Source: Paracoccaceae bacterium
Lineage (GTDB): Bacteria > Pseudomonadota > Alphaproteobacteria > Rhodobacterales > Rhodobacteraceae
DNA length: 62,688 nucleotides
Direction: 5' to 3'
Assembly: GCA_006844665.1 (NCBI GenBank)
Contig: SPJP01000021.1
Span: 1-62,688, forward strand
The notes beneath the pieces are model-generated. The model was not told the DNA's origin, searched no databases, and saw only the letters and a program-made list of their open reading frames with translations. Positions 46,227-58,085 of this stretch are shown here, one piece after another (within the stretch, counting starts at the first letter, position 1; each line of letters opens with the position of its first letter). The translations under genes and the position numbers were made by a program.

Positions 46227-46667
46227 ATGAGGCTGACCACGCGCACACAGCTTGCTATGCGAACATTAATGTTTTGCGCCTTGAACCCAGATCGCATCAT
46301 CCCAACGTCCGAAGTTGCTGAAAAATGCAAAGCGTCCGGCAATCATTTGGGCCAAGTTGTGAATCTGCTAGGTCGCAACAACTTGCTGGATACCCAGCGA
46401 GGCCGGGGCGGAGGTGTCCGCCTTAGCAAATCCGCCGAAGATATCTCTATCGGACAGGTCATGCGGGCGTTGGAAGAAACCTCTAGCTTTGCGGAATGCT
46501 TTAAATCCGACGGCGGGCAGTGCCCCTTGTCGCCCCATTGCCGCCTGCGCGGTAAACTGTCCAGCGCGATCGAGGCGTTCTATGCCTCTCTCGACAATGT
46601 GTCATTGGCCGAATTGACGGTCGGAAATTCGGGGATGTCCGGTCTGTTCGGCGTGGAACCTGTCTAG
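46227..46667 (+). CDS. Rrf2 family transcriptional regulator (NsrR-like, three Cys)
   Basis: MRLT, RGRGGG and ECF....QCPL...C Fe-S ligand pattern. Confidence 0.88.
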   Translation: MRLTTRTQLAMRTLMFCALNPDRIIPTSEVAEKCKASGNHLGQVVNLLGRNNLLDTQRGRGGGVRLSKSAEDISIGQVMRALEETSSFAECFKSDGGQCPLSPHCRLRGKLSSAIEAFYASLDNVSLAELTVGNSGMSGLFGVEPV

Positions 46668-46676
46668 CCTGCTGCC

Positions 46677-46694
46677 CTAGGGTCAGGACCCTAG
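46677..46694. repeat. Collapsed copy/footprint of the MITE ends
   Basis: CTAGGGTCAGGACCCTAG; the first 15 nt equal the left end of the 21291 element and the last 8 nt equal its right end. Confidence 0.7.
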
Positions 46695-46842
46695 GAACCC
46701 TTAAAAGTTTCGCCAAAATCGATATAAATATACGTTTACGACGCTTGTTTTATTACTTCCGAGCGCGTTCCTATACCAAAGAGAGCGCGTATCGGTTGGC
46801 TCGTTAACCTAAACCATTGGTTAACATCCGAGAGCCAATCAA

Positions 46843-48261
46843 ATGCAAGTTCGCCACGAACGCCCCATGTCCGATCTGTCTTTTGACGTTCGCGCGCCTT
46901 TAACATTAGAGGTCGTGGGCGGCGAAAAGATTGTGATCGAGGCTTGGTCGCTGACGGGCTTCACCTATCCGGGTATTTCCGAAATTGTGCCCAGCAATGG
47001 ATTGCTGTCGATCCCGTTCCAAGGTGTCGATGTCCGCTTTAAGGTCGAGCTGGAGCCGGGCGATGGCCCGCGCGAGGTCAAGTTCAAAGGTCTGGGCGGG
47101 CGCCAGCGCGAAACCTTGGCCGTATTCTACCGTTCGATCCTGTCAGGCAAGATGGTGTCCAGCGAAGATGTAATCACCAGCTTGGACACGCCGGTTGATC
47201 TTGTCCCGATGGGAGAGACCGAACAAGAGGTCGCCATTGCCACCGAAGGCCACGGCCCTCGGTCTTTCAAAATCCTTTGGAACGCTATGTTCTATGCGAT
47301 GCTGTCGCTGGTGGTGTTTGGGCTGCTTGGGTCCAGCATCTATGATCGGTTAAGCGGCATTCGTCTGCAAAACGGTCGGGTTGCGGCCCCATTGGTGGAA
47401 CTGCGCGTGTCCGAGGCCTCTTATGTGGATCAGATCCATGTGGCCATTGGTGACCGGGTGCGCGTGGGTCAGGTGCTGGTGTCATTGAATAATCCGGAAC
47501 GCGACGGGGCCTTGGACGGTGTGCGTGGGGATATTCGTCTTGCCGAACAGCGACTGACAGATGCGGAAACTAGGTTGCAGCAGATGATTGCGCGCAGGCT
47601 CGCCCAGCGCGACGTGCTTGTTCAAGCCGTGACCCGAGCCCAGAACGCCCTGACGGTCCGTGACTTTATCGGCGGCTACCGGCAACAGGCCTATTTGGCG
47701 GCTTTGGCCGCCTTGCGGAGTTTCGATACGATGTCGCTGGAATTTGAGGAGCTAGAGGCCCAGCTGCGCGAATTGGTCCAAGAACGCACCAATGCAGTGC
47801 GCCAGTTGAAACGGGATCTTTCCAATGCCAAAGACGCCTATGATGCCTTAAACGTCATCAGCCCGGTCGATGGGATGGTGCGCGAATTGCCCGTTGTCAA
47901 AGATCTGTACATCGCTCGGGGCGTCTTGGCGGCCGTGGTCGAGGAAAATCGCCCAAGGCAAGCCTTAGGTTGGGTCAACGAGCGGGCCTCGCAAAGTTTG
48001 CATGTGGGGCAGGCGGCCCGACTGCGGGTGTCCAGCGCCACGGGCAGCAAAACAATGAATGCGGTGGTATCAGACATAACCGCAGGGGTCGATCCGGCGC
48101 GGCCCGGCGAATTTGGCGTCATCGTTACCTTAGACACCAATCAAAAGGATCTAACAAAGAATCGTGCAGCCCTGCGTCCGGATGCGCCTGTGGAAATTCA
48201 AGCGGACCGCGGTTGGTTCCTGACGCCATTTGTCTTGGCATTCCGGTCTTGGTGGTCCTGA
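46843..48261 (+). CDS. Alg44-like co-polymerase (PilZ-like N-terminus, TM helix, HlyD/MFP domain)
   Basis: N-terminal VRHE and WSLTG, one TM helix, lipoyl-like VAIGDRVRVGQVL and ISPVDG halves, coiled coil; adjacent to an alg8-like gene. Confidence 0.75.
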   Translation: MQVRHERPMSDLSFDVRAPLTLEVVGGEKIVIEAWSLTGFTYPGISEIVPSNGLLSIPFQGVDVRFKVELEPGDGPREVKFKGLGGRQRETLAVFYRSILSGKMVSSEDVITSLDTPVDLVPMGETEQEVAIATEGHGPRSFKILWNAMFYAMLSLVVFGLLGSSIYDRLSGIRLQNGRVAAPLVELRVSEASYVDQIHVAIGDRVRVGQVLVSLNNPERDGALDGVRGDIRLAEQRLTDAETRLQQMIARRLAQRDVLVQAVTRAQNALTVRDFIGGYRQQAYLAALAALRSFDTMSLEFEELEAQLRELVQERTNAVRQLKRDLSNAKDAYDALNVISPVDGMVRELPVVKDLYIARGVLAAVVEENRPRQALGWVNERASQSLHVGQAARLRVSSATGSKTMNAVVSDITAGVDPARPGEFGVIVTLDTNQKDLTKNRAALRPDAPVEIQADRGWFLTPFVLAFRSWWS

Positions 48262-48262
48262 A

Positions 48263-49852
48263 ATGTCGGCCCCTGAATCTGAATACGCGTTCGACAAAGA
48301 CCTGACCGTGCGCCTGCGCGAAGCCGCGCGGCCCGGGGGCAAAGGCTTGGCGAAATGGTCGGTCCCTCAGTTGATCCTGCTGGGGGTCATGATGACGGGC
48401 CTGTTGTGGCTGCTAAGTTTTACCCCGAACCGGTTCCTAAACCCCGACGTCATGCATGTAACGATAACTCTGGGTGCTTTGGGGATCTGGCGCTTTGGCT
48501 GGTGGTTCAATCATGCGGTGCGCGCGGAATGCTATTCGCGCTTTAAATGGCCCGGGATGCGGGCGCGGGCGTCAAAGCTTTGGGCCGAGGGTTGGCGGCC
48601 CCGGCGTCTGCACATCCAGATGACCACCTATTATGAGGAACCCGCAATCACCAAACGGGTGATCGGATCGCTGCTAAGCCAGATCCGGCGCGAGGGCATT
48701 CCAACCACGCTCTATATTGGGACGGGGTCCAGCTATGATGAGATGATTATTCGGTCCTTCATTGAAACCTACGCGCAGGATATCCCAGATGAGCTGGCCG
48801 AACTGGTGTTTATTCGGCAAAACCAGCCGGGTAAGCGGATGGCCATTGGCCTGATCCTACGCGCGATCAACCGCAATGGCGTGCATCCTGACGATCTGGT
48901 GATCTTTATGGATGGCGACGCGCTGTACGGGTTCGACGTGATGGAAAAAACCCTGAGCATGTTCGGGGCTGATCCGGAATTGCAGGCCCTGACCACCAAT
49001 GAAGAGGTGATCTGCTACGGCCCGAAATGGATCGCGAACTGGCTGGATATGCGCTTTGCCCAGCGCCGTTTGGCGATGCAAAGCCACGCGATGTCTGACA
49101 AAGTGTTGACCCTTACAGGCCGGATGTCGGTGTTTCGCGCCCAACATATGCTGTCGGAAAAATTTATCCGCACGATAGAAGCCGATCATCTGGATCATTG
49201 GCTGTGGGGAAGGTTCCGGTTTCTGTCGGGGGACGACAAATCCACCTGGTACCATATGCTGACCCGCGATGCGAAAATGACCTATGTGCCTGACGCCACG
49301 GTTTATACGATCGAGGTGATCAAGGAAAACGGGTTGGACCGGATGGTCCAGAACTTTCGCCGCTGGTCGGGAAATATGTTGCGCAACGGATCCCGCGCCA
49401 TTGCCCTTGGTCCGAAAAAGGTCAAGCCGTTCATCTGGTGGTGTATTGTCGATCAACGCATTGCCATGTGGACGATGATGGTCAGCCCCGTGATGGCGGT
49501 TCTGGCTTCGATGGTGGAACCCACCTATATCTGGTCCTGCTTGATCTGGATCGTGTTTTCGCGGGTGGTTCTGTGCCTGTTTCTGTTTCGCTACAGCCGC
49601 GTAATCGACCTAAGCTGGCCGTTCATTTTGTACCTGAACCAGGTGATCAACGCGTCGGTAAAGATTTACATGATCTTTCATCTGTCCAAACAGAAATGGT
49701 CCAATCGCGGCAATCAATCAGCGGGCAATGGCGAAGGCTGGCAGGCCCGGATGCAAAATTCAGTCGCCAAAATTCAACTGGTTACCGCCGCCGTTGGCTT
49801 TGTTCTGGGAATCGCACTCTATGTCGGGTTGCTAGAGCTGCCACGTTTTTAA
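48263..49852 (+). CDS. alg8: Alg8-like processive GT2 glycosyltransferase (mannuronan synthase-like)
   Basis: LGIWRF, GKR, DGD, ALTTNE, VLTLTGRMSVFRA, FLSGDDKSTW, YVPDA and RRWSGNMLRN, all recalled Alg8 motifs. Confidence 0.8.
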   Translation: MSAPESEYAFDKDLTVRLREAARPGGKGLAKWSVPQLILLGVMMTGLLWLLSFTPNRFLNPDVMHVTITLGALGIWRFGWWFNHAVRAECYSRFKWPGMRARASKLWAEGWRPRRLHIQMTTYYEEPAITKRVIGSLLSQIRREGIPTTLYIGTGSSYDEMIIRSFIETYAQDIPDELAELVFIRQNQPGKRMAIGLILRAINRNGVHPDDLVIFMDGDALYGFDVMEKTLSMFGADPELQALTTNEEVICYGPKWIANWLDMRFAQRRLAMQSHAMSDKVLTLTGRMSVFRAQHMLSEKFIRTIEADHLDHWLWGRFRFLSGDDKSTWYHMLTRDAKMTYVPDATVYTIEVIKENGLDRMVQNFRRWSGNMLRNGSRAIALGPKKVKPFIWWCIVDQRIAMWTMMVSPVMAVLASMVEPTYIWSCLIWIVFSRVVLCLFLFRYSRVIDLSWPFILYLNQVINASVKIYMIFHLSKQKWSNRGNQSAGNGEGWQARMQNSVAKIQLVTAAVGFVLGIALYVGLLELPRF

Positions 49853-50080
49853 ATCCCAATGGCGTTGCCTTAAAATTTCCTAAAACTTTTCTGATTCAGG
49901 ACCGCTTTCGGGCCCGGATTTGCCGTGGATCATTGGTCTAGAGGGCGAGAAAGGATTGGGGTCTATGCCGACGTATAGATCGAACATCCTATCGCTCTGC
50001 TGCCTATACTTACTCTGAAAACATAAACCAAAACAATAGCTTACAAAGGGTTAACGCATTTTTTAGTTGGGAAAAAGCTT

Positions 50081-51481
50081 ATGTTTGACTATGTAAATAC
50101 TGTCGAGACACTGAATGATCTGGCCACGTTCAAGCTGATTGAGGCCAAGGCAAATATTAGTGTCGTGGGCCTGGGATATGTCGGTGCTGTGTCTACAGCC
50201 TGCTTGTCCTCTTTGGGTCATAAAGTTATCGGCGTTGATGTAGACGCCGTCAAAATTCAAGCGGTGGGCGCAGGCCAATCCCCCATCCATGAAAAAGACC
50301 TGGGCACGCTTTTGTCCGAAGGGGTCCAGGCCGGATTGATCACAACAACTGACAATTTGGTGCAAGCAGTACGCGACACAGACGTTACATTTGTATCCGT
50401 GGGCACGCCAACGGCAGAGGGTGGCGGCTGCGACTACCGTTATATCGAAGCCGCCGCTCGCGCGATGGGTACGGGGCTTGCGGGAAAAACAGATTACCAT
50501 ACATTCGTCATGCGATGTTCGATCCCCCCAGGCACCACCAAACAGGTTCTGATCCCGATCCTGGAACATATTTCCGGCAAGCGTCTGGGCGAAGATTTTG
50601 GCGTTTGTTTCAACCCTGAATTTCTGCGCGAAGGGGTCGCGATCGAGGACTTCCACGCGCCGTCCAAAACGGTGATCGGGGCCACGGATATGCGGTCTGC
50701 CAATGTCTTGGCGCGCATTTATGAGCCCGTCGATGCAGACCCAATCATCACCAGCATCGAGACCGCTGAAATGGTGAAATATGTCGACAATGTCTGGCAT
50801 GCCACAAAGGTGACCTTCGCCAACGAGGTCGGCCGTTTGTGCAAGCCACTTGGCGTGGACAGCCATGATGTGATGGACATTTTCGTCCAAGACACAAAGC
50901 TGAACCTTAGCCCCTACTACCTAAAGCCCGGCTTTGCCTTTGGCGGATCTTGCCTGCCGAAAGAGGTCCGCGCGGTTGCCCATATCGCCACAACTATGGG
51001 CGAAGACCTGCCTTTGATCTCTTCACTGACGACCTCGAACCAGACCCATATCGAACGGGCCCTGCAGATGGTGCAGGAAACCGGCGCGAAAACAGTTGGT
51101 ATCCTGGGGCTGGCGTTTAAACCCGGTACAGACGACCTGCGCGAAAGCCCGATCCTAGAGGTCATCGCCGCCCTTCATGCAGAAGGCGTCACTGTCAAAA
51201 TCCACGATCCGGCGATCACCAGCCAAACCGATATTTTAGGCCAGATGGGCTATGTGCGCCACGGCGCGCCCGGTCTGCAGGAACTGGCCTTGGATCTGGC
51301 AGACATGATGTTTGACAGCCTCGATGTCCTCGCAGACAGCGTCGACGCCTTGGTCGTGACCCAGAAAACCGAAGCATACCAGCAGGTTGCCCTGAATTCA
51401 GGCGACACGCCAGTGATTGATCTGGTGCGTTTGTTCCCCGAAATTCCGACCATCGCCACCTATAACGGCATCGGTTGGTAG
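50081..51481 (+). CDS. algD: GDP-mannose 6-dehydrogenase
   Basis: GLGYVGAV, FNPEFLRE, AEMVKY.DNVWHA.KVTFANE and KLNLSPYYLKPGFAFGGSCLPK (AlgD-type rather than Ugd-type). Confidence 0.85.
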   Translation: MFDYVNTVETLNDLATFKLIEAKANISVVGLGYVGAVSTACLSSLGHKVIGVDVDAVKIQAVGAGQSPIHEKDLGTLLSEGVQAGLITTTDNLVQAVRDTDVTFVSVGTPTAEGGGCDYRYIEAAARAMGTGLAGKTDYHTFVMRCSIPPGTTKQVLIPILEHISGKRLGEDFGVCFNPEFLREGVAIEDFHAPSKTVIGATDMRSANVLARIYEPVDADPIITSIETAEMVKYVDNVWHATKVTFANEVGRLCKPLGVDSHDVMDIFVQDTKLNLSPYYLKPGFAFGGSCLPKEVRAVAHIATTMGEDLPLISSLTTSNQTHIERALQMVQETGAKTVGILGLAFKPGTDDLRESPILEVIAALHAEGVTVKIHDPAITSQTDILGQMGYVRHGAPGLQELALDLADMMFDSLDVLADSVDALVVTQKTEAYQQVALNSGDTPVIDLVRLFPEIPTIATYNGIGW

Positions 51482-51523
51482 CCCCACAGTTCCAACACGT
51501 ATCAGTAAGTTAAGGAGAACCCT

Positions 51524-54151
51524 ATGTCCCCGCTGCCCCCCCCGCTTCCAATCCTTGGAACCGTGACGTCCGAGACGTTGGACGGTACCATTTTAGGCGA
51601 TCTTTTGGTCGGATTGGATGGGAATGACACAATCAGCGGGGGCAAAGGCGACGACACCATTCACGGGGATTTCGTCGATCCGAACTTGCTGGAAGACGCC
51701 ACAGATGCGGTGACGTTTTCCCAATACGGGGACAGTGACGCATGGAGCGTGACCCAGCAGCCCGATGGCCACGCCAGCATGACCCAAACTGTGCAAACGG
51801 CCGCTGGCACCGACTACGCGATCAGCTTTGAGCTGGCTGCAAACTACAGCGCGGGCGCTGTTTCTGGCGCGGTAGAGGTTCTGTGGAACGGCGAGGTGAT
51901 CCACAGCTTTGACACTAATAGTGCCACGTTTTCGGCCCATGATGTGACGTTTGAAGGCACCGGCGGCCCGGGCGAACTGACTTTCCGATCTGTTGATCCA
52001 GCCCCCACCGATGGCCCGCAAATCCAAACCGATGGCCCGGTTTTCTGGTACGAAAAAACGATGGATCTGGGCGGCGAACAGGTCGCTGTTAAGGCCATCG
52101 CAGAAGGCCAAAGCCATATTTACCAAGTCTTGGACGGCACACTGCATCTGTTTGATCCTGAAACCGCGACCTACACAAAGGCCGGCAGCGACGGATCCGT
52201 TGGGGTCAACGCGATTGGCTTTAACGTCGAAGACGACATGCTGTACGGGATTGCAGTGTCGAACGGCGTGGATAGCCAGGGCAATACGGTTCAAAGCTCT
52301 GATTTGCTGATGTTTGACGCTGTTGGCGACAGCTATCTTGTTGGTTCCACCCCATATCGGTCCTGGACCGGGGATTTCGACGCGTCCGGCAATCTGTGGG
52401 TGTTCAACTCCTCCATGGATTGGATCAACATGATTGATGTGGGGCAGGTTGATGCCAATGGCGATGTGGCGACCCAAACCTTCAGGCTGCCCCGCGGTTT
52501 GGTGACCGATTCCGTCTGGGATGTCGCCTATGACGCTGAAACCCAAACCTTTATTGGGATGGTGAAGCCCAGCTCCGAAGGCCAGCCAAGCTCGTTGCTG
52601 ATCGTAGATGTATCCGGTGTGGCGGCGGGCGGGGAGCCTGTGTTTACCTCTGTCCCTGTGACCAACACTATGGTCGATGGCCAGATGCTGGATGGGGTGC
52701 CCTTTGTCACCTTTGGGGCAGCGATCCATGATGCCGATGGCAACCTATATGTGGGCGGCAATGGCGGCGACCACGATATGAACAACAGCACAGCCACCAC
52801 TGGCGGTATTTACCGCGTTGTGCGGGATTTGGACGAAGGCACCGCCTATCTGGAACTGGTGTCCGCAGCGCCCAAAGCGCGGTCCAATGACGGGGCCGCT
52901 GACCCGCGCGCCATGGATCCGTTCACGGAAGTGGATAAATACGCAAAAATCCTGATCCGTTCGCCCGAGCTGGTACCGGAACTGCCCGAAACGCCCGAAG
53001 AAGGGCCAGAGCCGGATACCGGATATGACGACACGATCCATGCGGGGGCCGGAAAAGACACTGTATACGGGGACTTAGGCCAAGACACAGTGATCGGGTC
53101 TTCTGCAGGCGACACGCTTTATGGCGAAGACGGCAATGACATGCTGTATGGTGGGGCTGGACCGGAATGGACGGATAATGGCCTGATCTCGGTCTATGAC
53201 GACGACGGCAACCGGTTCGATCAGTTCGGCAATCCACTGCCCGAGGATGACGATACCCTGTTCGGTGGCGAGGGCGACGACTTTCTGTCGGGCTCCGCCG
53301 GGCATGATGTGCTGGACGGCGGCACCGGTGCCGATACGCTGTCGGGCGGGTCCGGCGATGACACGCTTTATGGCGGGCAAGGGGACGATACCCTGTCTGG
53401 CGGAGGACAGGATGACAGCCTGTCTGGCGGCGATGGTGCTGATGATCTGCAAGGCGGGTCCGGCGACAACACGCTTTTGGGCGGGGCTGGCGATGACCAG
53501 ATGCGCTCTGGCGCGGGGACCGACTATCATGATGGCGGCGACGGCGATGACACGATCTATGCGGGGAACGGCAACGACACGTTGATCGGTGGCCAAGGTG
53601 CGGATTCTTTGCGTGGCGGGTCTGGCGACGACTTGCTGGATGGCGGCACGGAAAACGACACGCTGGACGGTGGGTCAGGCAATGACACGTTGCTTGGCGG
53701 CAAGGGCAATGATCGTCTAAAGGCCGGGTCCGGCAATGACGAGCTGATCGGCGGGGATGGCAAAGACTATCTGGCCGCGTGGAAAGGCGATGACGTGCTG
53801 GATGGTGGCGCGGGAAATGACCGGTTGTACCTGGGCGCCGGGACCGATGTGGCAACTGGTGGCACAGGCAGCGATTATTTTATATTTCGTAACGACGATT
53901 TGGATGGAAACACTGATCTGATCACCGATTTCCGTTTTGATGGAGCAGAGAGAGACCGCCTGGATCTGCGTTCGCTTGACATACTGGCGGGCGACGTCAC
54001 GGCCGAGGTTTGGTTCGCCCAGTCAGTTCAGCAAAATGGCGATTTTAGTGTAACTGTGGATCTGGGGGGCAGCACGGTTTCGCTGCAAGACAGCTTCGGG
54101 GCGGAGGACGATTTCCTGCAACAGGTCCAAGACGGCATCATGTTTGCCTAA
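51524..54151 (+). CDS. Secreted RTX Ca2+-binding protein with a putative carbohydrate-binding jelly-roll and a beta-propeller-like region
   Basis: Many GGxGxDxL nonapeptides, very acidic, no Sec signal, AGGAG SD. Confidence 0.85.
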   Translation: MSPLPPPLPILGTVTSETLDGTILGDLLVGLDGNDTISGGKGDDTIHGDFVDPNLLEDATDAVTFSQYGDSDAWSVTQQPDGHASMTQTVQTAAGTDYAISFELAANYSAGAVSGAVEVLWNGEVIHSFDTNSATFSAHDVTFEGTGGPGELTFRSVDPAPTDGPQIQTDGPVFWYEKTMDLGGEQVAVKAIAEGQSHIYQVLDGTLHLFDPETATYTKAGSDGSVGVNAIGFNVEDDMLYGIAVSNGVDSQGNTVQSSDLLMFDAVGDSYLVGSTPYRSWTGDFDASGNLWVFNSSMDWINMIDVGQVDANGDVATQTFRLPRGLVTDSVWDVAYDAETQTFIGMVKPSSEGQPSSLLIVDVSGVAAGGEPVFTSVPVTNTMVDGQMLDGVPFVTFGAAIHDADGNLYVGGNGGDHDMNNSTATTGGIYRVVRDLDEGTAYLELVSAAPKARSNDGAADPRAMDPFTEVDKYAKILIRSPELVPELPETPEEGPEPDTGYDDTIHAGAGKDTVYGDLGQDTVIGSSAGDTLYGEDGNDMLYGGAGPEWTDNGLISVYDDDGNRFDQFGNPLPEDDDTLFGGEGDDFLSGSAGHDVLDGGTGADTLSGGSGDDTLYGGQGDDTLSGGGQDDSLSGGDGADDLQGGSGDNTLLGGAGDDQMRSGAGTDYHDGGDGDDTIYAGNGNDTLIGGQGADSLRGGSGDDLLDGGTENDTLDGGSGNDTLLGGKGNDRLKAGSGNDELIGGDGKDYLAAWKGDDVLDGGAGNDRLYLGAGTDVATGGTGSDYFIFRNDDLDGNTDLITDFRFDGAERDRLDLRSLDILAGDVTAEVWFAQSVQQNGDFSVTVDLGGSTVSLQDSFGAEDDFLQQVQDGIMFA
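53020..53880 (+). repeat. Tandem 27-bp coding repeats (RTX nonapeptides)
   Basis: Degenerate GGCGGN..GGCGA(C/T)GAC units encoding GGxGxDxLx; boundaries approximate. Confidence 0.85.
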
Positions 54152-54205
54152 GCGAAATGCGGGGCCGTCAGGCCACGTTTTAACGGGTGGGACTGCTTCC
54201 AACCC

Positions 54206-54817
54206 TCAGAAAAGGTTCGCCTCTTTCGCCATCATCGCCGCTTGGGTCCGGTTCTTGGCATCGAGTTTTCGACACAAAGTCTTCACGTGCAATTTGATCG
54301 TAACTTCTTGCAAGTTTAACACGCGCGCGATTTCCTTGTTGGATTGGCCTTTGCATAGTCCTTGCAAGACCTGGAGCTCTCGGGCGCTAAGGGCTTTGGC
54401 AAGTGGGTTGGTCGAGGCCGCTTCTTCTTCCCGCATGACCGAAATTGGCATGTAGGTTTCGCCAGAGGCCATGAACCGGATTGCGTTGACTAAGGATTGC
54501 GCGCCTTGGGTCTTGGGTAAAAAGCCGATCGCGCCTTCGTTTATTGCCTCTTGCGCCACTCCGCGGGGGGCGGACCCGGACAAGATCGCAACGGTTTTTG
54601 CGCCATTGGCCTGGGTTGCTTTGCGCAATCCATCCAGACCGTTCATCCCGGGCATGTTGTAATCCAAAAGCACGATATCGAAAGGAGCTTTCGCAATATG
54701 TTCTAACGCTTCGGGCAAGCTACTGGCGGTTTCAGCCACGATATCGGCGTCTTTGCCAAGAAACATCGCGATCGTTTCGCGTACAAGATCGTGGTCATCT
54801 GCAATTAAAACACGCAT
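54206..54817 (-). CDS. NarL/FixJ (LuxR-HTH) response regulator
   Basis: IADDH, LLDYNMPG, and LSARE...GQSNKEIA...TIKLHV. Confidence 0.93.
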   Translation of the reverse strand: MRVLIADDHDLVRETIAMFLGKDADIVAETASSLPEALEHIAKAPFDIVLLDYNMPGMNGLDGLRKATQANGAKTVAILSGSAPRGVAQEAINEGAIGFLPKTQGAQSLVNAIRFMASGETYMPISVMREEEAASTNPLAKALSARELQVLQGLCKGQSNKEIARVLNLQEVTIKLHVKTLCRKLDAKNRTQAAMMAKEANLF

Positions 54818-54911
54818 TGCTTACTCCGCTACGTTGCTGGGACGGATTCTCAGCTTACAAGGTTCACTTCAGTTGTTTTTGCTAAATTCCGCTTAACAAT
54901 GACGACCGAAA

Positions 54912-54937
54912 GAGCGTTTGGCTATACGAAAGGATAG
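54912..54937. promoter_or_regulatory. Shared motif GAGCG-N5-CTATAC-N4-GGATAG (related copies at 46761 and 49963)
   Basis: 16/21 identity with 46761-46781; the CTAT-N8-ATAG palindrome also occurs at 49963-49978. Confidence 0.55.
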
Positions 54938-55019
54938 TTAGGCTACCCGCTTGCCTTCGTGACCAATGCCTGTGGCCTGTGCGAGTAGTCGGTAACTTAT
55001 ATAAAAAGGTGCCGATAAG

Positions 55020-55520
55020 ATGTCTGTTTTAAAGTTCTCTACTGCTCTCTTAGTCGCCTTCGCGCTGCCTGCCATGGCGTTGGACACAGCCCCTACTGAT
55101 ACCATTGTCTTGACCGTTTCAGGCAAAATTTCAGAACATAATCAAAATGATACAGCCGTTTTTGACATCGAGATGTTGTCAAAATTGCCAGTGACAGAGT
55201 TCACGACATCCACCGTCTGGACAGAAGGCGAAGTGAATTTCACTGGTGTGTCCTTGGACGTGTTGCTTGAACAGATCGGTGGCACTGGCACGACGATGTT
55301 TGCAACCGCAATAAATGACTACGCTGTCGAGATTCCCGTATCAGATGCGCAGGTCGGGGGGCCAATCGTTGCGTATTTGATGGATGGCCAGCCGATGTCT
55401 GTGCGTGACAAGGGCCCGCTTTGGATCGTGTACCCCTACGATTCCAATGCCGATTTTCAGTCTGAAATCATCTACTCGCGCAGTATTTGGCAACTCGACC
55501 GAATTGAATTTGCCAACTAG
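55020..55520 (+). CDS. Periplasmic SUOX-fold protein lacking the Moco Cys (PruR-like putative pterin-binding protein)
   Basis: Sec signal (AMA|), T.T.WT, F.GV.L, AINDY, RDKGPLWIVYP and SIWQL..I; no Cys in the protein. Confidence 0.75.
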   Translation: MSVLKFSTALLVAFALPAMALDTAPTDTIVLTVSGKISEHNQNDTAVFDIEMLSKLPVTEFTTSTVWTEGEVNFTGVSLDVLLEQIGGTGTTMFATAINDYAVEIPVSDAQVGGPIVAYLMDGQPMSVRDKGPLWIVYPYDSNADFQSEIIYSRSIWQLDRIEFAN

Positions 55521-55637
55521 GATAGCTGTTCCAGACAGGCGCAAAAGGGGAAGGCGATCCGTATCTTTTCTGTTTTTCAGGTAAACCCGTGGCTGCGCTT
55601 TGGCGCGGCCATTGGATTTTTTATCCTTCTGCTTGGG

Positions 55638-58085
55638 GTGATTTATGCGTTGTTGGTCCCTGTGGCCAATAAGATTGAAGAATTCGCAACGGCGGATTCT
55701 GACAATGTTCAGTGGACATTGGCCCAGGTAGAGGTCGAATATTTTCGACTCGAACGCACTCTGACCTTGGATGACGATGTGACCGAACCCGATGTCGCTA
55801 CAATTCGGCGGCGATTTGATGTTTATTACAGCCGCATCCAGACCCTGAAAAACAGCAGTCTTTTTGCCCCGGTACGCCAGCAAGACAGGTTTCAAACAGC
55901 GCTTGCCTCGGTCTCGGGCTTTCTGGATGCCTCGGTTCCGATCATAGACAGTGACGACGCCAGTTTGATCGCGCAGCGCGTCACCTTAAAGGATGCTTTG
56001 CGCGCGACCCGGCCTGATGTTCGGGCTTTGTCACTAGAAGGCATCAAAGGCTTTGCCATCGCGTCCGATCAGCGGCGCAGTGGCGTATCCCGTACCTTGC
56101 GTCTGATGGCTGGAATTGCCTTTGGCTTGATACTTGTCCTAGCCTTGGCTGCCCTTGTTTTGCTGCGCTTGTACCAAGACGGCCAGGCCCAAGCGCGGTC
56201 CTATGCGCTAACCTCATCCCGTTTGCATTCCATTGTGTCGACCTCTTTGGCGGCCATTTTGGTGATCGACAAAAAGGGCCGCATCCTGGATTTCAACGGT
56301 GCCGCTGAACAAGTGTTTGGCTACACACGAGACGAAGCTATGGGTGCGTTCATGGCTGATTTGATTGTCCCTGACCATTTTCACGCCGCCCACAGTGCCG
56401 GGATGCACCGCTACCTGACCACCGGCGAAAAGAAGGTGATAGGCAAAGGCCGGGTGGAGTTGGAAGCAAAGCACAAATCCGGCCGTGTCTTCCCGGTTGA
56501 GCTGTCGATATCGACGGCCCAAAGCGAAGAGGGCGAGATTTTCGTATCCTTCCTGCAGGATATCTCGGCCCGCGTTCAGGGCGAAAAAGACCTGCGTGAC
56601 GCCCGTGACAAAGCCCTGGCAGGCGAAAAAGCCAAGGCCGAGCTGCTGGCCGTGATGAGCCACGAGATGCGCACGCCGCTCAATGGTATGATGGGGACGT
56701 TAGAGCTGATCGAGGAAACAGACCTGTCCGAAGAACAGCATAAATACCTGCAAAATATGAATATTTCCGGGCAGCTGTTGCTGCACCATGTCAATGATGT
56801 CCTGGATATCGCGCGATTGGATTCAGGAAAACTGTCCCTTGTTGAAACAACATTCGAACTAGGAACCCTGTTACAGGAGCTTGCCGACAGTCAGAACCGT
56901 GCGGCTCAAGCCAACGGAAACACGCTAACTGCGCAGCTAATGGGCGATGCGGATTGCTATGTTCTAAGCGATCCGATGCGCCTGCGTCAGATTTTGCTGA
57001 ACTTGATCGGCAACGCGATCAAGTTCACTCACGACGGCGCGATCACGGTCGAGGCCGAAGTGCTTCCTGACAAACAGATCGAACTGCGGGTCGCCGACAC
57101 CGGGACCGGCATAAGTGAAGAAGACGCCGCACGAGTATTCGAGGACTTTGTTACTTTGGATGCCTCTTACGGTCGCCAAACCGGGGGAACGGGTCTTGGG
57201 TTGGGCATCACCAAGCGGGTCGTGGATGCGCTGAACGGCCAGATCGGGGTCGAAAGCGCCGCTGACGAGGGCAGCCTGTTCTGGGTCCGTTTGCCACTGA
57301 AGCAGGTAACAATGTCTGATCCCTCTGTACTTCGGGAACATGGCCCGGATCGGCGGCAAGCCAAGGCGCTGTCGGTCCTGGTGATCGAAGACAACGCAAT
57401 TAATCGGCAAGTTGTGCGTCAAATGCTGAGTTCCATGGGCCATACGGTGACCGAGGCAGAAGATGGCCAAAGCGGCGTGGCGGCGGCCGAAGCCCGTGCC
57501 TATGATCTGATCTTGATGGATATCAGCATGCCCAATATGGACGGGATCGAGGCCACACGCCATATCCGCGCCGGGCAGGGGCCCAATGTCACAACGCAGA
57601 TCATCGCCCTGACGGCCAACGCACTGCCCGAGGACGTCGACCGTTTTAAGCTGATAGGCATGGACGATGTGATCATCAAACCAATCAGCCGTTCTACTTT
57701 ACGGGCGGTAATCGACCGGCCTGAGGATCCCGAACAGCCAATTTCGGATGCCCCCCAAGCCTTTGATCCCGAAGTGTTTCAAGAACTGCTGGACATGCTG
57801 GGCCCGGAACAAACAGCCGTGATTTATCAAGATGTGTTGACCCAAGTCGGTGATGCTATCGAAGCAATGGATGCGGCCAATGGCGCTGCCTCGGCCAATC
57901 TGGCAGACCTCGTTCACAAAACCTCAGGCGCTGTGGCCCTTGTTGGTGGGACATCGTTACATGGGAAACTAAAGGCAGTGGAAATCGCCTTTAGAGCAGG
58001 CAAAGACCAACCCAACGGGGCCCGAGAGATTGCGGAGGGAAAGGCCGAGCTGGAAGCTACTTTGGGACAGTTGGTGCCGAGTTAG
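55638..58085 (+). CDS. Hybrid sensor histidine kinase (periplasmic sensor, PAS, HisKA, HATPase, REC, Hpt); true start probably upstream
   Basis: [39 protein letters not shown], and a C-terminal VHKTSG Hpt-like motif. Confidence 0.92.

Follow-up and report, generated by a model that had tools for sequence, protein, structure and literature searches.

A probable transcriptional link between a PruR-coupled kinase and an alginate-type polysaccharide module in a Paracoccaceae bacterium

In this study, we have examined a 62,688-nucleotide stretch of DNA from a Paracoccaceae bacterium (GenBank assembly GCA_006844665.1, contig SPJP01000021.1; hereafter the window), in which genes for an alginate-type polymer (alg44-like, alg8-like and algD) and a gene for an RTX protein lie next to a response regulator gene, a homologue of the gene for the pterin protein PruR and a hybrid kinase gene. 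Our comparisons suggest that this alginate-type module is under transcriptional control, by a pathway that would run from PruR through the kinase to the NarL-type regulator and from there to a DNA box repeated in the promoter regions; we give this reading a probability of about 0.6. It is carried by the distribution of the box, which accompanies the regulator across relatives, and by the constancy of the regulator beside the alg genes while the sensor changes.

Results

Gene content of the locus

The seven open reading frames (ORFs) have the positions and orientations that a first-pass annotation, made from the sequence alone, had given them:

46843..48261, + strand: Alg44-like co-polymerase, 472 amino acids (aa), with a PilZ fold, one membrane helix, a membrane-fusion-protein domain and a long hairpin
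48263..49852, + strand: Alg8-like polymerase of glycosyltransferase family 2 (GT2), 529 aa, with DGD, GDDKS and RW motifs kept
50081..51481, + strand: AlgD, GDP-mannose 6-dehydrogenase homologue, 466 aa, 44% identical to canonical AlgD
51524..54151, + strand: RTX calcium-binding repeat protein, 875 aa
54206..54817, - strand: NarL/LuxR-type response regulator, 203 aa, with a receiver and a LuxR-type helix-turn-helix
55020..55520, + strand: PruR homologue, 166 aa, with a signal-peptide-like N-terminus and no Cys
55557..58085, + strand: DTB-type hybrid kinase by its domain content, with a predicted ATC start

Pfam and NCBIfam assign HlyD-type domains to the first product, GT2 to the second and a nucleotide-sugar dehydrogenase to the third; the remaining genes match RTX and DUF6923, receiver and LuxR-type helix-turn-helix, Oxidored_molyb, and PAS-HisKA-HATPase-receiver, respectively. 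The identities proposed earlier hold for AlgD and the Alg8-like protein by sequence, for the Alg44-like protein by structure, and for the cysteine-free PruR-like protein by matches in the PDB.

Our comparisons used the best 80 of 143 Alg8 loci from GTDB, of which 59 extend at least 9 kb downstream (long loci), a sample of 260 genomes of the family, in which PruR was counted among the matches listed with 12 weak PruR matches left out, and, as canonical alginate references, two 12-gene operons (L156 and L157) whose AlgE, AlgG, AlgL and PilZ were confirmed by Pfam. The nearest named Alg8 relatives returned by the Alg8-locus search are roseobacter-group records. The genome that contains the window (G000) measures 2.95 Mb and is 83% complete.

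A promoter box that accompanies the regulator

An unseeded Gibbs search of 71 regions upstream of alg44 returned the motif CTATAC-N4-GKATAG, mostly 90-120 bases before the start. The scoring matrix was built from 62 of the 71 sites, none of them from the genome of the window. Nine regions without a motif-like site were left out, six of which belong to loci lacking the regulator that later served as a negative control, and this control is therefore not fully independent. The predicted boxes of the locus are:

46770..46787, + strand: box 5' of the alg44-like gene, 13.4 bits
46808..46825, strand not assigned: second box 5' of the alg44-like gene, 14.2 bits
49962..49979, strand not assigned: box 5' of algD, 10.7 bits
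54921..54938, strand not assigned: box between the regulator gene and pruR, 19.8 bits, the best of the whole genome

These are four of the top five sites of the window under a matrix taken from other genomes, and the motif which the first-pass annotation had seen in the promoter regions is thus above chance; its proposal that a promoter box links the two halves of the locus was borne out as well. The sites at alg44 and algD derive their weight from their conservation in relatives. Where the regulator is adjacent, a box of at least 10 bits precedes alg44 in 54 of 55 cases and algD in 53 of 55, under either of the sensor types described below, against a background at 10 bits of 5-8% in shuffled sequences and 3.6% of 2192 upstream regions of the own genome. 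At the same threshold, the box is found upstream of pruR (47/51, and 27/28 without alg genes), FIST genes (15/15), manC (40/47), algF (18/22), pmm (10/11) and globin genes (2/7). In the six loci of regulator-less layout, and in a second copy of the module in the own genome (on contig C153, see below), the scores are 0.3-7.6 bits. Four other loci with no regulator in view do have the box, and a wider fetch around one of them (L244) placed a regulator about 8 kb upstream. Scans for sigma-70 promoters and terminators in the sequence gave chance level only.

The regulator stays while the sensor changes

The order alg44-alg8-algD-regulator is kept in 53 of the 59 long loci, and in 51 together with the RTX gene. 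The two halves of the locus also co-occur elsewhere, as expected from the first-pass annotation: all seven genes are present in 19 of the 80 loci, 14 of which have the divergent layout of the window. Beside the regulator, 21 loci have a PruR-DTB pair as sensor; in 29 others, assigned by Pfam only, its place is taken by a FIST protein and a GAF/PAS hybrid kinase, sometimes accompanied by a globin. In the remaining loci the sensor type was not called (6) or no regulator is in view (24, many of them short). PruR-DTB is the less frequent sensor of the alg module, which speaks against one dedicated seven-gene system. On an unrooted tree built from 91 regulators, those of PruR and FIST loci are intermixed, with 9 and 8 changes, so the sensor appears, judging from the tree, to have been swapped more than once with the regulator staying. 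Three rows of this tree are faulty (L212 carries FIST and alg genes, L219 is without pruR, and L192 is the wrong ORF). In an alignment of 17 homologues, the recognition helix of the regulator hardly varies. The constant partner of the alg module is the regulator and not PruR.

In the family sample, PruR is found in 124 of the 260 genomes, a close relative of the regulator in 106 and this type of Alg8 in 19, with PruR within about 12 kb of this Alg8 type in 5, which speaks against the dedicated pairing of PruR and alg genes that had been proposed. Because the sensor has been exchanged around a constant regulator and PruR lies mostly away from alg genes, the seven-gene block is therefore best described as one combination of two mobile cassettes. 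We also compared 30 pruR loci free of alg genes, a selection made by similarity rather than by chance. Of these, 12 are surrounded by other polysaccharide genes and average 3.25 boxes per locus, versus 1.6 in the others.

Two arrangements stand out. In nine of these 12 loci (L189, L191, L193, L196, L197, L199, L203, L205 and L226), the regulator and the pruR-kinase pair sit inside an uncharacterised polysaccharide cluster of the Wzx/Wza kind, which includes a WecG-priming transferase fusion and holds 2-5 boxes per locus. In other loci (L031, L033, L038, L040, L045, L046, L050, L079, L103 and L212-L214), a globin-FIST-hybrid kinase-regulator operon with the same box adjoins alg genes or, in L214, another polysaccharide cluster, possibly as a nitric oxide (NO)- or heme-sensing version of the switch.

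The polymer-making genes

The best PDB match of AlgD is the GDP-mannose dehydrogenase of P. aeruginosa (E 7e-114, 384 bits, full length), versus 277 bits for the best UDP-glucose dehydrogenase. The Alg8-like protein is 35% identical over 433 residues (E 6e-84) to Alg8 of a canonical 12-gene operon and keeps the catalytic motifs (DGD, GDDKS, the E322 equivalent and RW); its close relatives carry the Joint Genome Institute (JGI) label 'glycosyltransferase Alg8', and a sequence search of the PDB returned 0 matches. Identity of Alg8 across the family is 63-89%. In relatives, AlgA/ManC (58/80), AlgI (22/80) and AlgX/J (23/80) belong to the cluster, and Pfam and tblastn also place Pmm and AlgF/I/J/X-like genes with the alg module in many of them; an alginate-type product is supported because these genes join the cluster. 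The module had been called minimal. This is so here, but partly a local trait, since manC, pmm and algF/I/J/X-like genes are clustered in many relatives and lie elsewhere in the own genome. There, manC is absent between alg8 and algD and two copies are found on contigs C70 and C265; manC also lies outside the cluster in other intact loci. AlgJ/F-like and AlgX-like genes stand at the ends of contigs C92 and C104, and a box of 12.5 bits lies at C92:2106. No algI was found in the own genome, and it perhaps lies in an assembly gap.

Genes for export and modification gave negative results. AlgK and AlgE had no tblastn match in the 80 loci or the own genome, nor did AlgG and AlgL with three queries each, although distant families could escape such a search. 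The AlgE family PF13372 has 0 matches in the own genome (83% complete) and is missing in three of four near-complete relatives, being present elsewhere in the fourth (G1042); the lyase family PF05426 has 0 matches in four of four roseobacter genomes. The locus itself contains no ABC transporter. Elsewhere, the own genome encodes three TolC-type proteins and two type I secretion pairs (C266 and C226).

A second copy of the module is located on C153 of the own genome (10968-17012), where the alg44-like, alg8-like and algD products are 34%, 63% and 70% identical to those of the window and are accompanied by a different RTX protein. This copy has a convergent layout with neither regulator nor box, and the same layout recurs in genomes of the same genus (L169-L172).

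An Alg44-like protein without the c-di-GMP motif

A BLAST comparison with canonical Alg44 returns no match for the Alg44-like protein, its N-terminus gave nothing in sequence searches of the PDB, and PilZ is not among 25 listed of the 31 Pfam families for 49 members of its family. Its assignment comes from an AlphaFold model with a predicted local distance difference test (pLDDT) score of 88, in which residues 9-103 superpose on the PilZ domain of Alg44 (4rt0; Z 10.7, root-mean-square deviation 2.7, 95 residues), while the rest of the model resembles EmrA/MacA-type adaptors and, for the periplasmic part, also HlyD. The N-terminal domain folded alone from the single sequence reached a pLDDT of 61 with meaningless Foldseek matches, and the full model was used instead. 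In 49 family members, 105-137 residues separate the two lipoyl halves, versus 42 residues in three canonical proteins; the anchors for this measurement were placed by eye.

The protein lacks RxxxR and the D of DxSxxG, the residues at the R17, R21, D/E44 and R95 positions being D, D, A and P (the R95 column is less sure). In an alignment to canonical Alg44, both arginines are kept in 0 of 64 relatives; 56 have Asp or Glu in place of R17, 7 retain R21 and 6 retain D44. These residues are reported to be needed for binding of cyclic di-GMP (c-di-GMP) and for alginate synthesis in P. aeruginosa (PMC8461298, PMC4436075). The distant alphaproteobacterial loci L160-L162, with Alg8 about 55% identical, keep RxxxR, which makes its loss particular to this branch. 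On sequence grounds, the lost motif fits control by transcription, the level at which the first-pass annotation had placed it. A possible tie between loss of RxxxR and loss of H323 in Alg8 was rejected: L160-L162 carry Val at this position yet keep RxxxR, and H323 is also missing from many other alphaproteobacterial Alg8 proteins.

The RTX protein

Besides RTX repeats, this protein has a DUF6923 domain and a weak domain like DUF642/choice-of-anchor-C. A match to RTX pore-forming toxins covers the repeats only (211 bits versus a cut-off of 1000), and a PDB sequence search with the core outside the repeats gave no match. It is likely a secreted adhesin or matrix protein. The gene is present in 52 of the 59 long loci, and a box lies upstream of it in 2 of 56 at 9 bits; because it has no promoter box of its own, it is likely co-transcribed with algD.

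PruR and the hybrid kinase

The four best PDB matches of the small periplasmic protein, which is of the SUOX fold, include the PruR structures 7rkb, 7kos, 7kom and 7kp2 (E 4e-38 to 1e-24), entries identified as PruR in PMC11194511. The protein has 0 Cys, an invariant W67 in place of the cysteine of molybdenum cofactor (Moco) enzymes, and a PW motif that reads VW. W67 and the residues N99, Y101 and W157, which correspond to the pterin contacts N102, Y104 and W160 in A. tumefaciens numbering (PMC11194511), are invariant in 55 homologues. The own genome encodes one PruR/DTB pair, one regulator of this subfamily and, on C273, one short-chain dehydrogenase/reductase (SDR) in which the pteridine-reductase motifs TGX3RXG and YX3K occur, a candidate PruA/FolM.

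The kinase consists of a membrane helix, a periplasmic domain of DcpA type that contains WX7E, a second membrane helix, PAS, HisKA, HATPase, a receiver and a tail like a histidine phosphotransfer (Hpt) domain. Its PAS domain best matches the heme domains of FixL and DosP (E 2e-16). In an alignment to 1d06/1dp6 it keeps the positions of the proximal His and distal Arg, which we take to be the heme-ligating residues, and the His is kept in at least 90% of 12 aligned kinases; the heme sensing named in the first-pass annotation is to this extent supported at the level of sequence.

The kinase ORF ends at 58085 as claimed, but the GTG at 55638 is probably not its start: no ATG, GTG or TTG precedes the first membrane helix, and the ATC at 55557 is the only in-frame start of translation table 11 before it. 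In a related strain, there is no difference around this ATC and 7 of 9 changed codons are synonymous, so the gene looks live, as far as codon changes tell. Between 55518 and 55559, pruR and the kinase gene share one frame with a single TAG between them, and the ATC follows a purine-rich stretch; a PruR-kinase fusion by read-through of the TAG was set aside on membrane topology.

Flanking genes

Immediately 5' of alg44, positions 46227-46667 encode an Rrf2-family regulator, RirA/NsrR-like with scores below the cut-offs. This gene and a flanking SDR gene were rejected as members of the locus, as neither an Rrf2 gene nor a conserved SDR is a neighbour in the 80 loci; the flanking SDR is also without the pteridine-reductase motif. 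By eye, a small inverted repeat is visible at 46674-46696, past the Rrf2 gene and ahead of the alg44 promoter, and a like stretch lies 5' of alg44 in L085. Further upstream, a scan of 17 proteins at 9883-45295 showed genes usual for a chromosome, among them those for proline-tRNA ligase, LolCE, ParE, citramalate synthase, a corrinoid reactivation protein, a methyltetrahydrofolate methyltransferase and an exopolyphosphatase.

Discussion

Based on these results, we propose the following mechanism. Reduced pterin would bind PruR, which would contact the periplasmic domain of the kinase; the kinase, perhaps tuned by heme in its PAS domain and by oxygen or redox, would relay phosphate to the regulator through a His-Asp-His-Asp chain. 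The regulator may then bind CTATAC-N4-GKATAG at pruR, as feedback, and at alg44-alg8 and algD-RTX. AlgD would supply GDP-mannuronate, which Alg8 and a c-di-GMP-blind Alg44 would polymerise to polymannuronate, probably acetylated in many relatives, and the long hairpin may lead the polymer to a TolC-type pore. The RTX protein would be secreted through a type I system whose genes lie elsewhere, and it is predicted to bind calcium and the matrix. The sensor would be a plug-in, other relatives driving the same regulator from a FIST protein and its kinase.

A bolder extension, which we hold as a tentative possibility, is that this regulator subfamily and its box form a common output of PruR-DTB and FIST-coupled kinases, a plug-in polysaccharide switch that here replaces c-di-GMP control, with an alginate-type synthase independent of c-di-GMP and export by the hairpin to TolC instead of AlgK/AlgE. 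If this were true, marine roseobacters would be an unrecognised source of alginate-like polymer.

The nearest competitor to the proposed pathway differs from it in the input only: the regulator would run the alg module, but in response to oxygen, NO or redox through the heme-type PAS domain, PruR being a proxy for redox or a receptor for another ligand and the pterin signal of secondary importance. The likeness of the PAS domain to those of FixL and DosP, with its conserved His, and the globin gene beside the alternative FIST sensor favour such an input. NosP is itself a FIST protein. It has been described as heme-responsive (PMC13259868), and Greenwich et al. allow for pterin as a proxy for a redox cue (PMC11194511). 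Nevertheless, none of the pterin-contact residues is missing, WX7E is intact and the genome encodes an SDR of the pteridine-reductase type, and we consider a purely heme- or redox-borne signal unlikely. It is a good deal harder to believe that the product is another uronic-acid polymer or a short surface glycan, or that the Alg44-like protein mainly exports the RTX protein. The distance of Alg8 from its characterised counterpart, the missing AlgK, AlgE, AlgG and AlgL, the HlyD-, EmrA- and MacA-like periplasmic part and the frequency of the RTX gene would suit these alternatives; against them, AlgD is clearly of the GDP-mannose dehydrogenase type, ManC/AlgA, Pmm and AlgF/I/J/X-like genes are clustered, the N-terminal domain matches the PilZ of Alg44, and the locus has no ABC transporter while type I pairs are encoded on C266 and C226.

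A lack of wiring between the alg genes and the adjacent signalling trio, with the regulator controlling its own cassette only and another factor acting at the alg promoters, would agree with the wide spread of the trio among varied neighbours, with the moderate alg sites of the window and with a gene order shared by kin. We judge it very improbable, given that the regulator stays by the alg module as the sensor changes (21 PruR and 29 FIST loci; 8-9 changes on the tree) and that alg genes and sensor operons share one box upstream, which regulator-less alg loci are without. Finally, the locus could be a decaying copy, in which the kinase has lost its start, manC has gone from the cluster and a degenerate PilZ marks a dead synthase; substitutions of R17 and R21 do abolish alginate in P. 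aeruginosa (PMC4436075). However, all frames are intact, the kinase changes in the related strain are mostly synonymous, the PilZ change is family-wide with Alg8 conserved at 63-89%, and manC is missing from other intact loci and has copies on C70 and C265, so that decay is scarcely credible.

A number of observations weigh against the pathway from PruR to the alg genes. Most PruR-DTB cassettes lie elsewhere than beside this alg module, and 18 of the 30 alg-free pruR loci have no polysaccharide cluster nearby. In L160/L241 (G326, of another alphaproteobacterial family), where pruR and a kinase stand beside an alg cluster whose Alg44 has its RxxxR intact, neither this regulator nor a strong box occurs in about 34 kb. 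The relatives, being kin, are not independent samples, and part of what the matrix captures at alg44 is homology. In the window, the sites before alg44 and algD are moderate (10.7-14.2 bits), 63 sites genome-wide reaching 12.4 bits, and the box could be the target of a different factor carried along with the cassettes. Within the relay, the kinase needs a non-standard start, and its Hpt-like tail has no Pfam match, the tail motif occurring in 35 of 49 homologues only. On the polymer side, Alg8 is only 35% identical to the characterised enzyme and no known export route was found in the loci or the own genome; c-di-GMP could still act via another site, since GGDEF proteins are retained (4 in the own genome and 3-13 in five relatives).

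The proposed link between PruR and alginate-type genes would matter in several respects. More than 5,500 PruR-linked sensor pairs have been reported, about a quarter of them kinases without a known target (PMC11194511). The locus provides PruR-DTB kinases with a named regulator, a predicted binding site and candidate operons as targets, all in strains that can be cultured, which makes the question of their output directly testable. Non-pathogenic strains with the block include Shimia marina CECT 7688, Thalassovita mediterranea CECT 5383, Flavimaricola marinus CECT 8899 and Cognatiyoonia sediminum DSM 28715, and the FIST type is represented by Shimia ponticola WX04. An alginate-type synthase that lacks both the c-di-GMP switch and the known export channel, to which the locus points, bears on how Alg8/Alg44 are activated and how the polymer crosses the envelope. 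Furthermore, our data suggest that common marine bacteria make an alginate-like matrix under pterin, oxygen or NO control.

Comparison with known systems

Our literature search, with subscription papers largely outside it, found no paper that treats this module in roseobacters or the genes controlled by PruR-DTB kinases. Two leads were discarded: a study of alginate genes in Phaeobacter inhibens is not what PMC10984933 offers, as 'alginate' occurs 0 times in it, and 'ALG8' in PMC11092380 is a strain name. Alginate modules in marine genomes have been described (PMC11799575) and may include loci such as these. The same holds for the 'atypical' alginate operons lacking algKE (bioRxiv 769745), which share the loss of outer-membrane export and modification genes; they come from deep-sea bacteria, and no regulator is named in the available portion of that report.

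With the Pseudomonas/Azotobacter alginate system (algD, alg8, alg44, algK, E, G, X, L, I, J, F and A), the locus shares the architecture of AlgD, Alg8 and Alg44 and, in many relatives, the AlgA/ManC, Pmm and AlgF/I/J/X-like genes. It differs in that alg44 precedes alg8, RxxxR is lost, the hairpin spans about 130 residues rather than 42, AlgK, AlgE, AlgG and AlgL were not found in the loci or the own genome, and the genes are joined by one for an RTX protein and by a two-component system of their own. On the sensory side, the PAS domain resembles FixL/DosP in sequence and keeps the heme His position, but is embedded in a PruR-coupled hybrid kinase, and the alternative occupant of the sensor slot, a FIST protein with a hybrid kinase, recalls NosP-NahK. 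The PruA-PruR-DcpA pathway of A. tumefaciens likewise places a periplasmic pterin protein upstream of a membrane signaller with an adhesive polysaccharide as outcome, but its output is c-di-GMP turnover and its polymers are unipolar polysaccharide (UPP) and cellulose, whereas a kinase and a transcription factor would here act on an alginate-type polymer.

The closest relative is the PruR-DTB class itself (Greenwich et al. 2024, PMC11194511; reviewed in PMC13259868). The first-pass annotation had seen one dedicated new seven-gene system, a claim that does not stand, since PruR and a kinase near a response regulator are that published class. As there, pruR lies directly 5' of the gene for a kinase that combines a DcpA-type WX7E domain with PAS, HisKA, HATPase and receiver, a regulator gene is close by, and Dataset S1 of PMC11194511 lists pairs from Shimia and Thalassovita. 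In the portion of that paper available to us, response regulators near PruR-DTB pairs are described with no target genes or binding site, and 'alginate' has 0 occurrences in three of its supplementary files. What would distinguish the present case is the output that we propose for it, namely a regulator subfamily, a DNA box and the polysaccharide operons that carry it.

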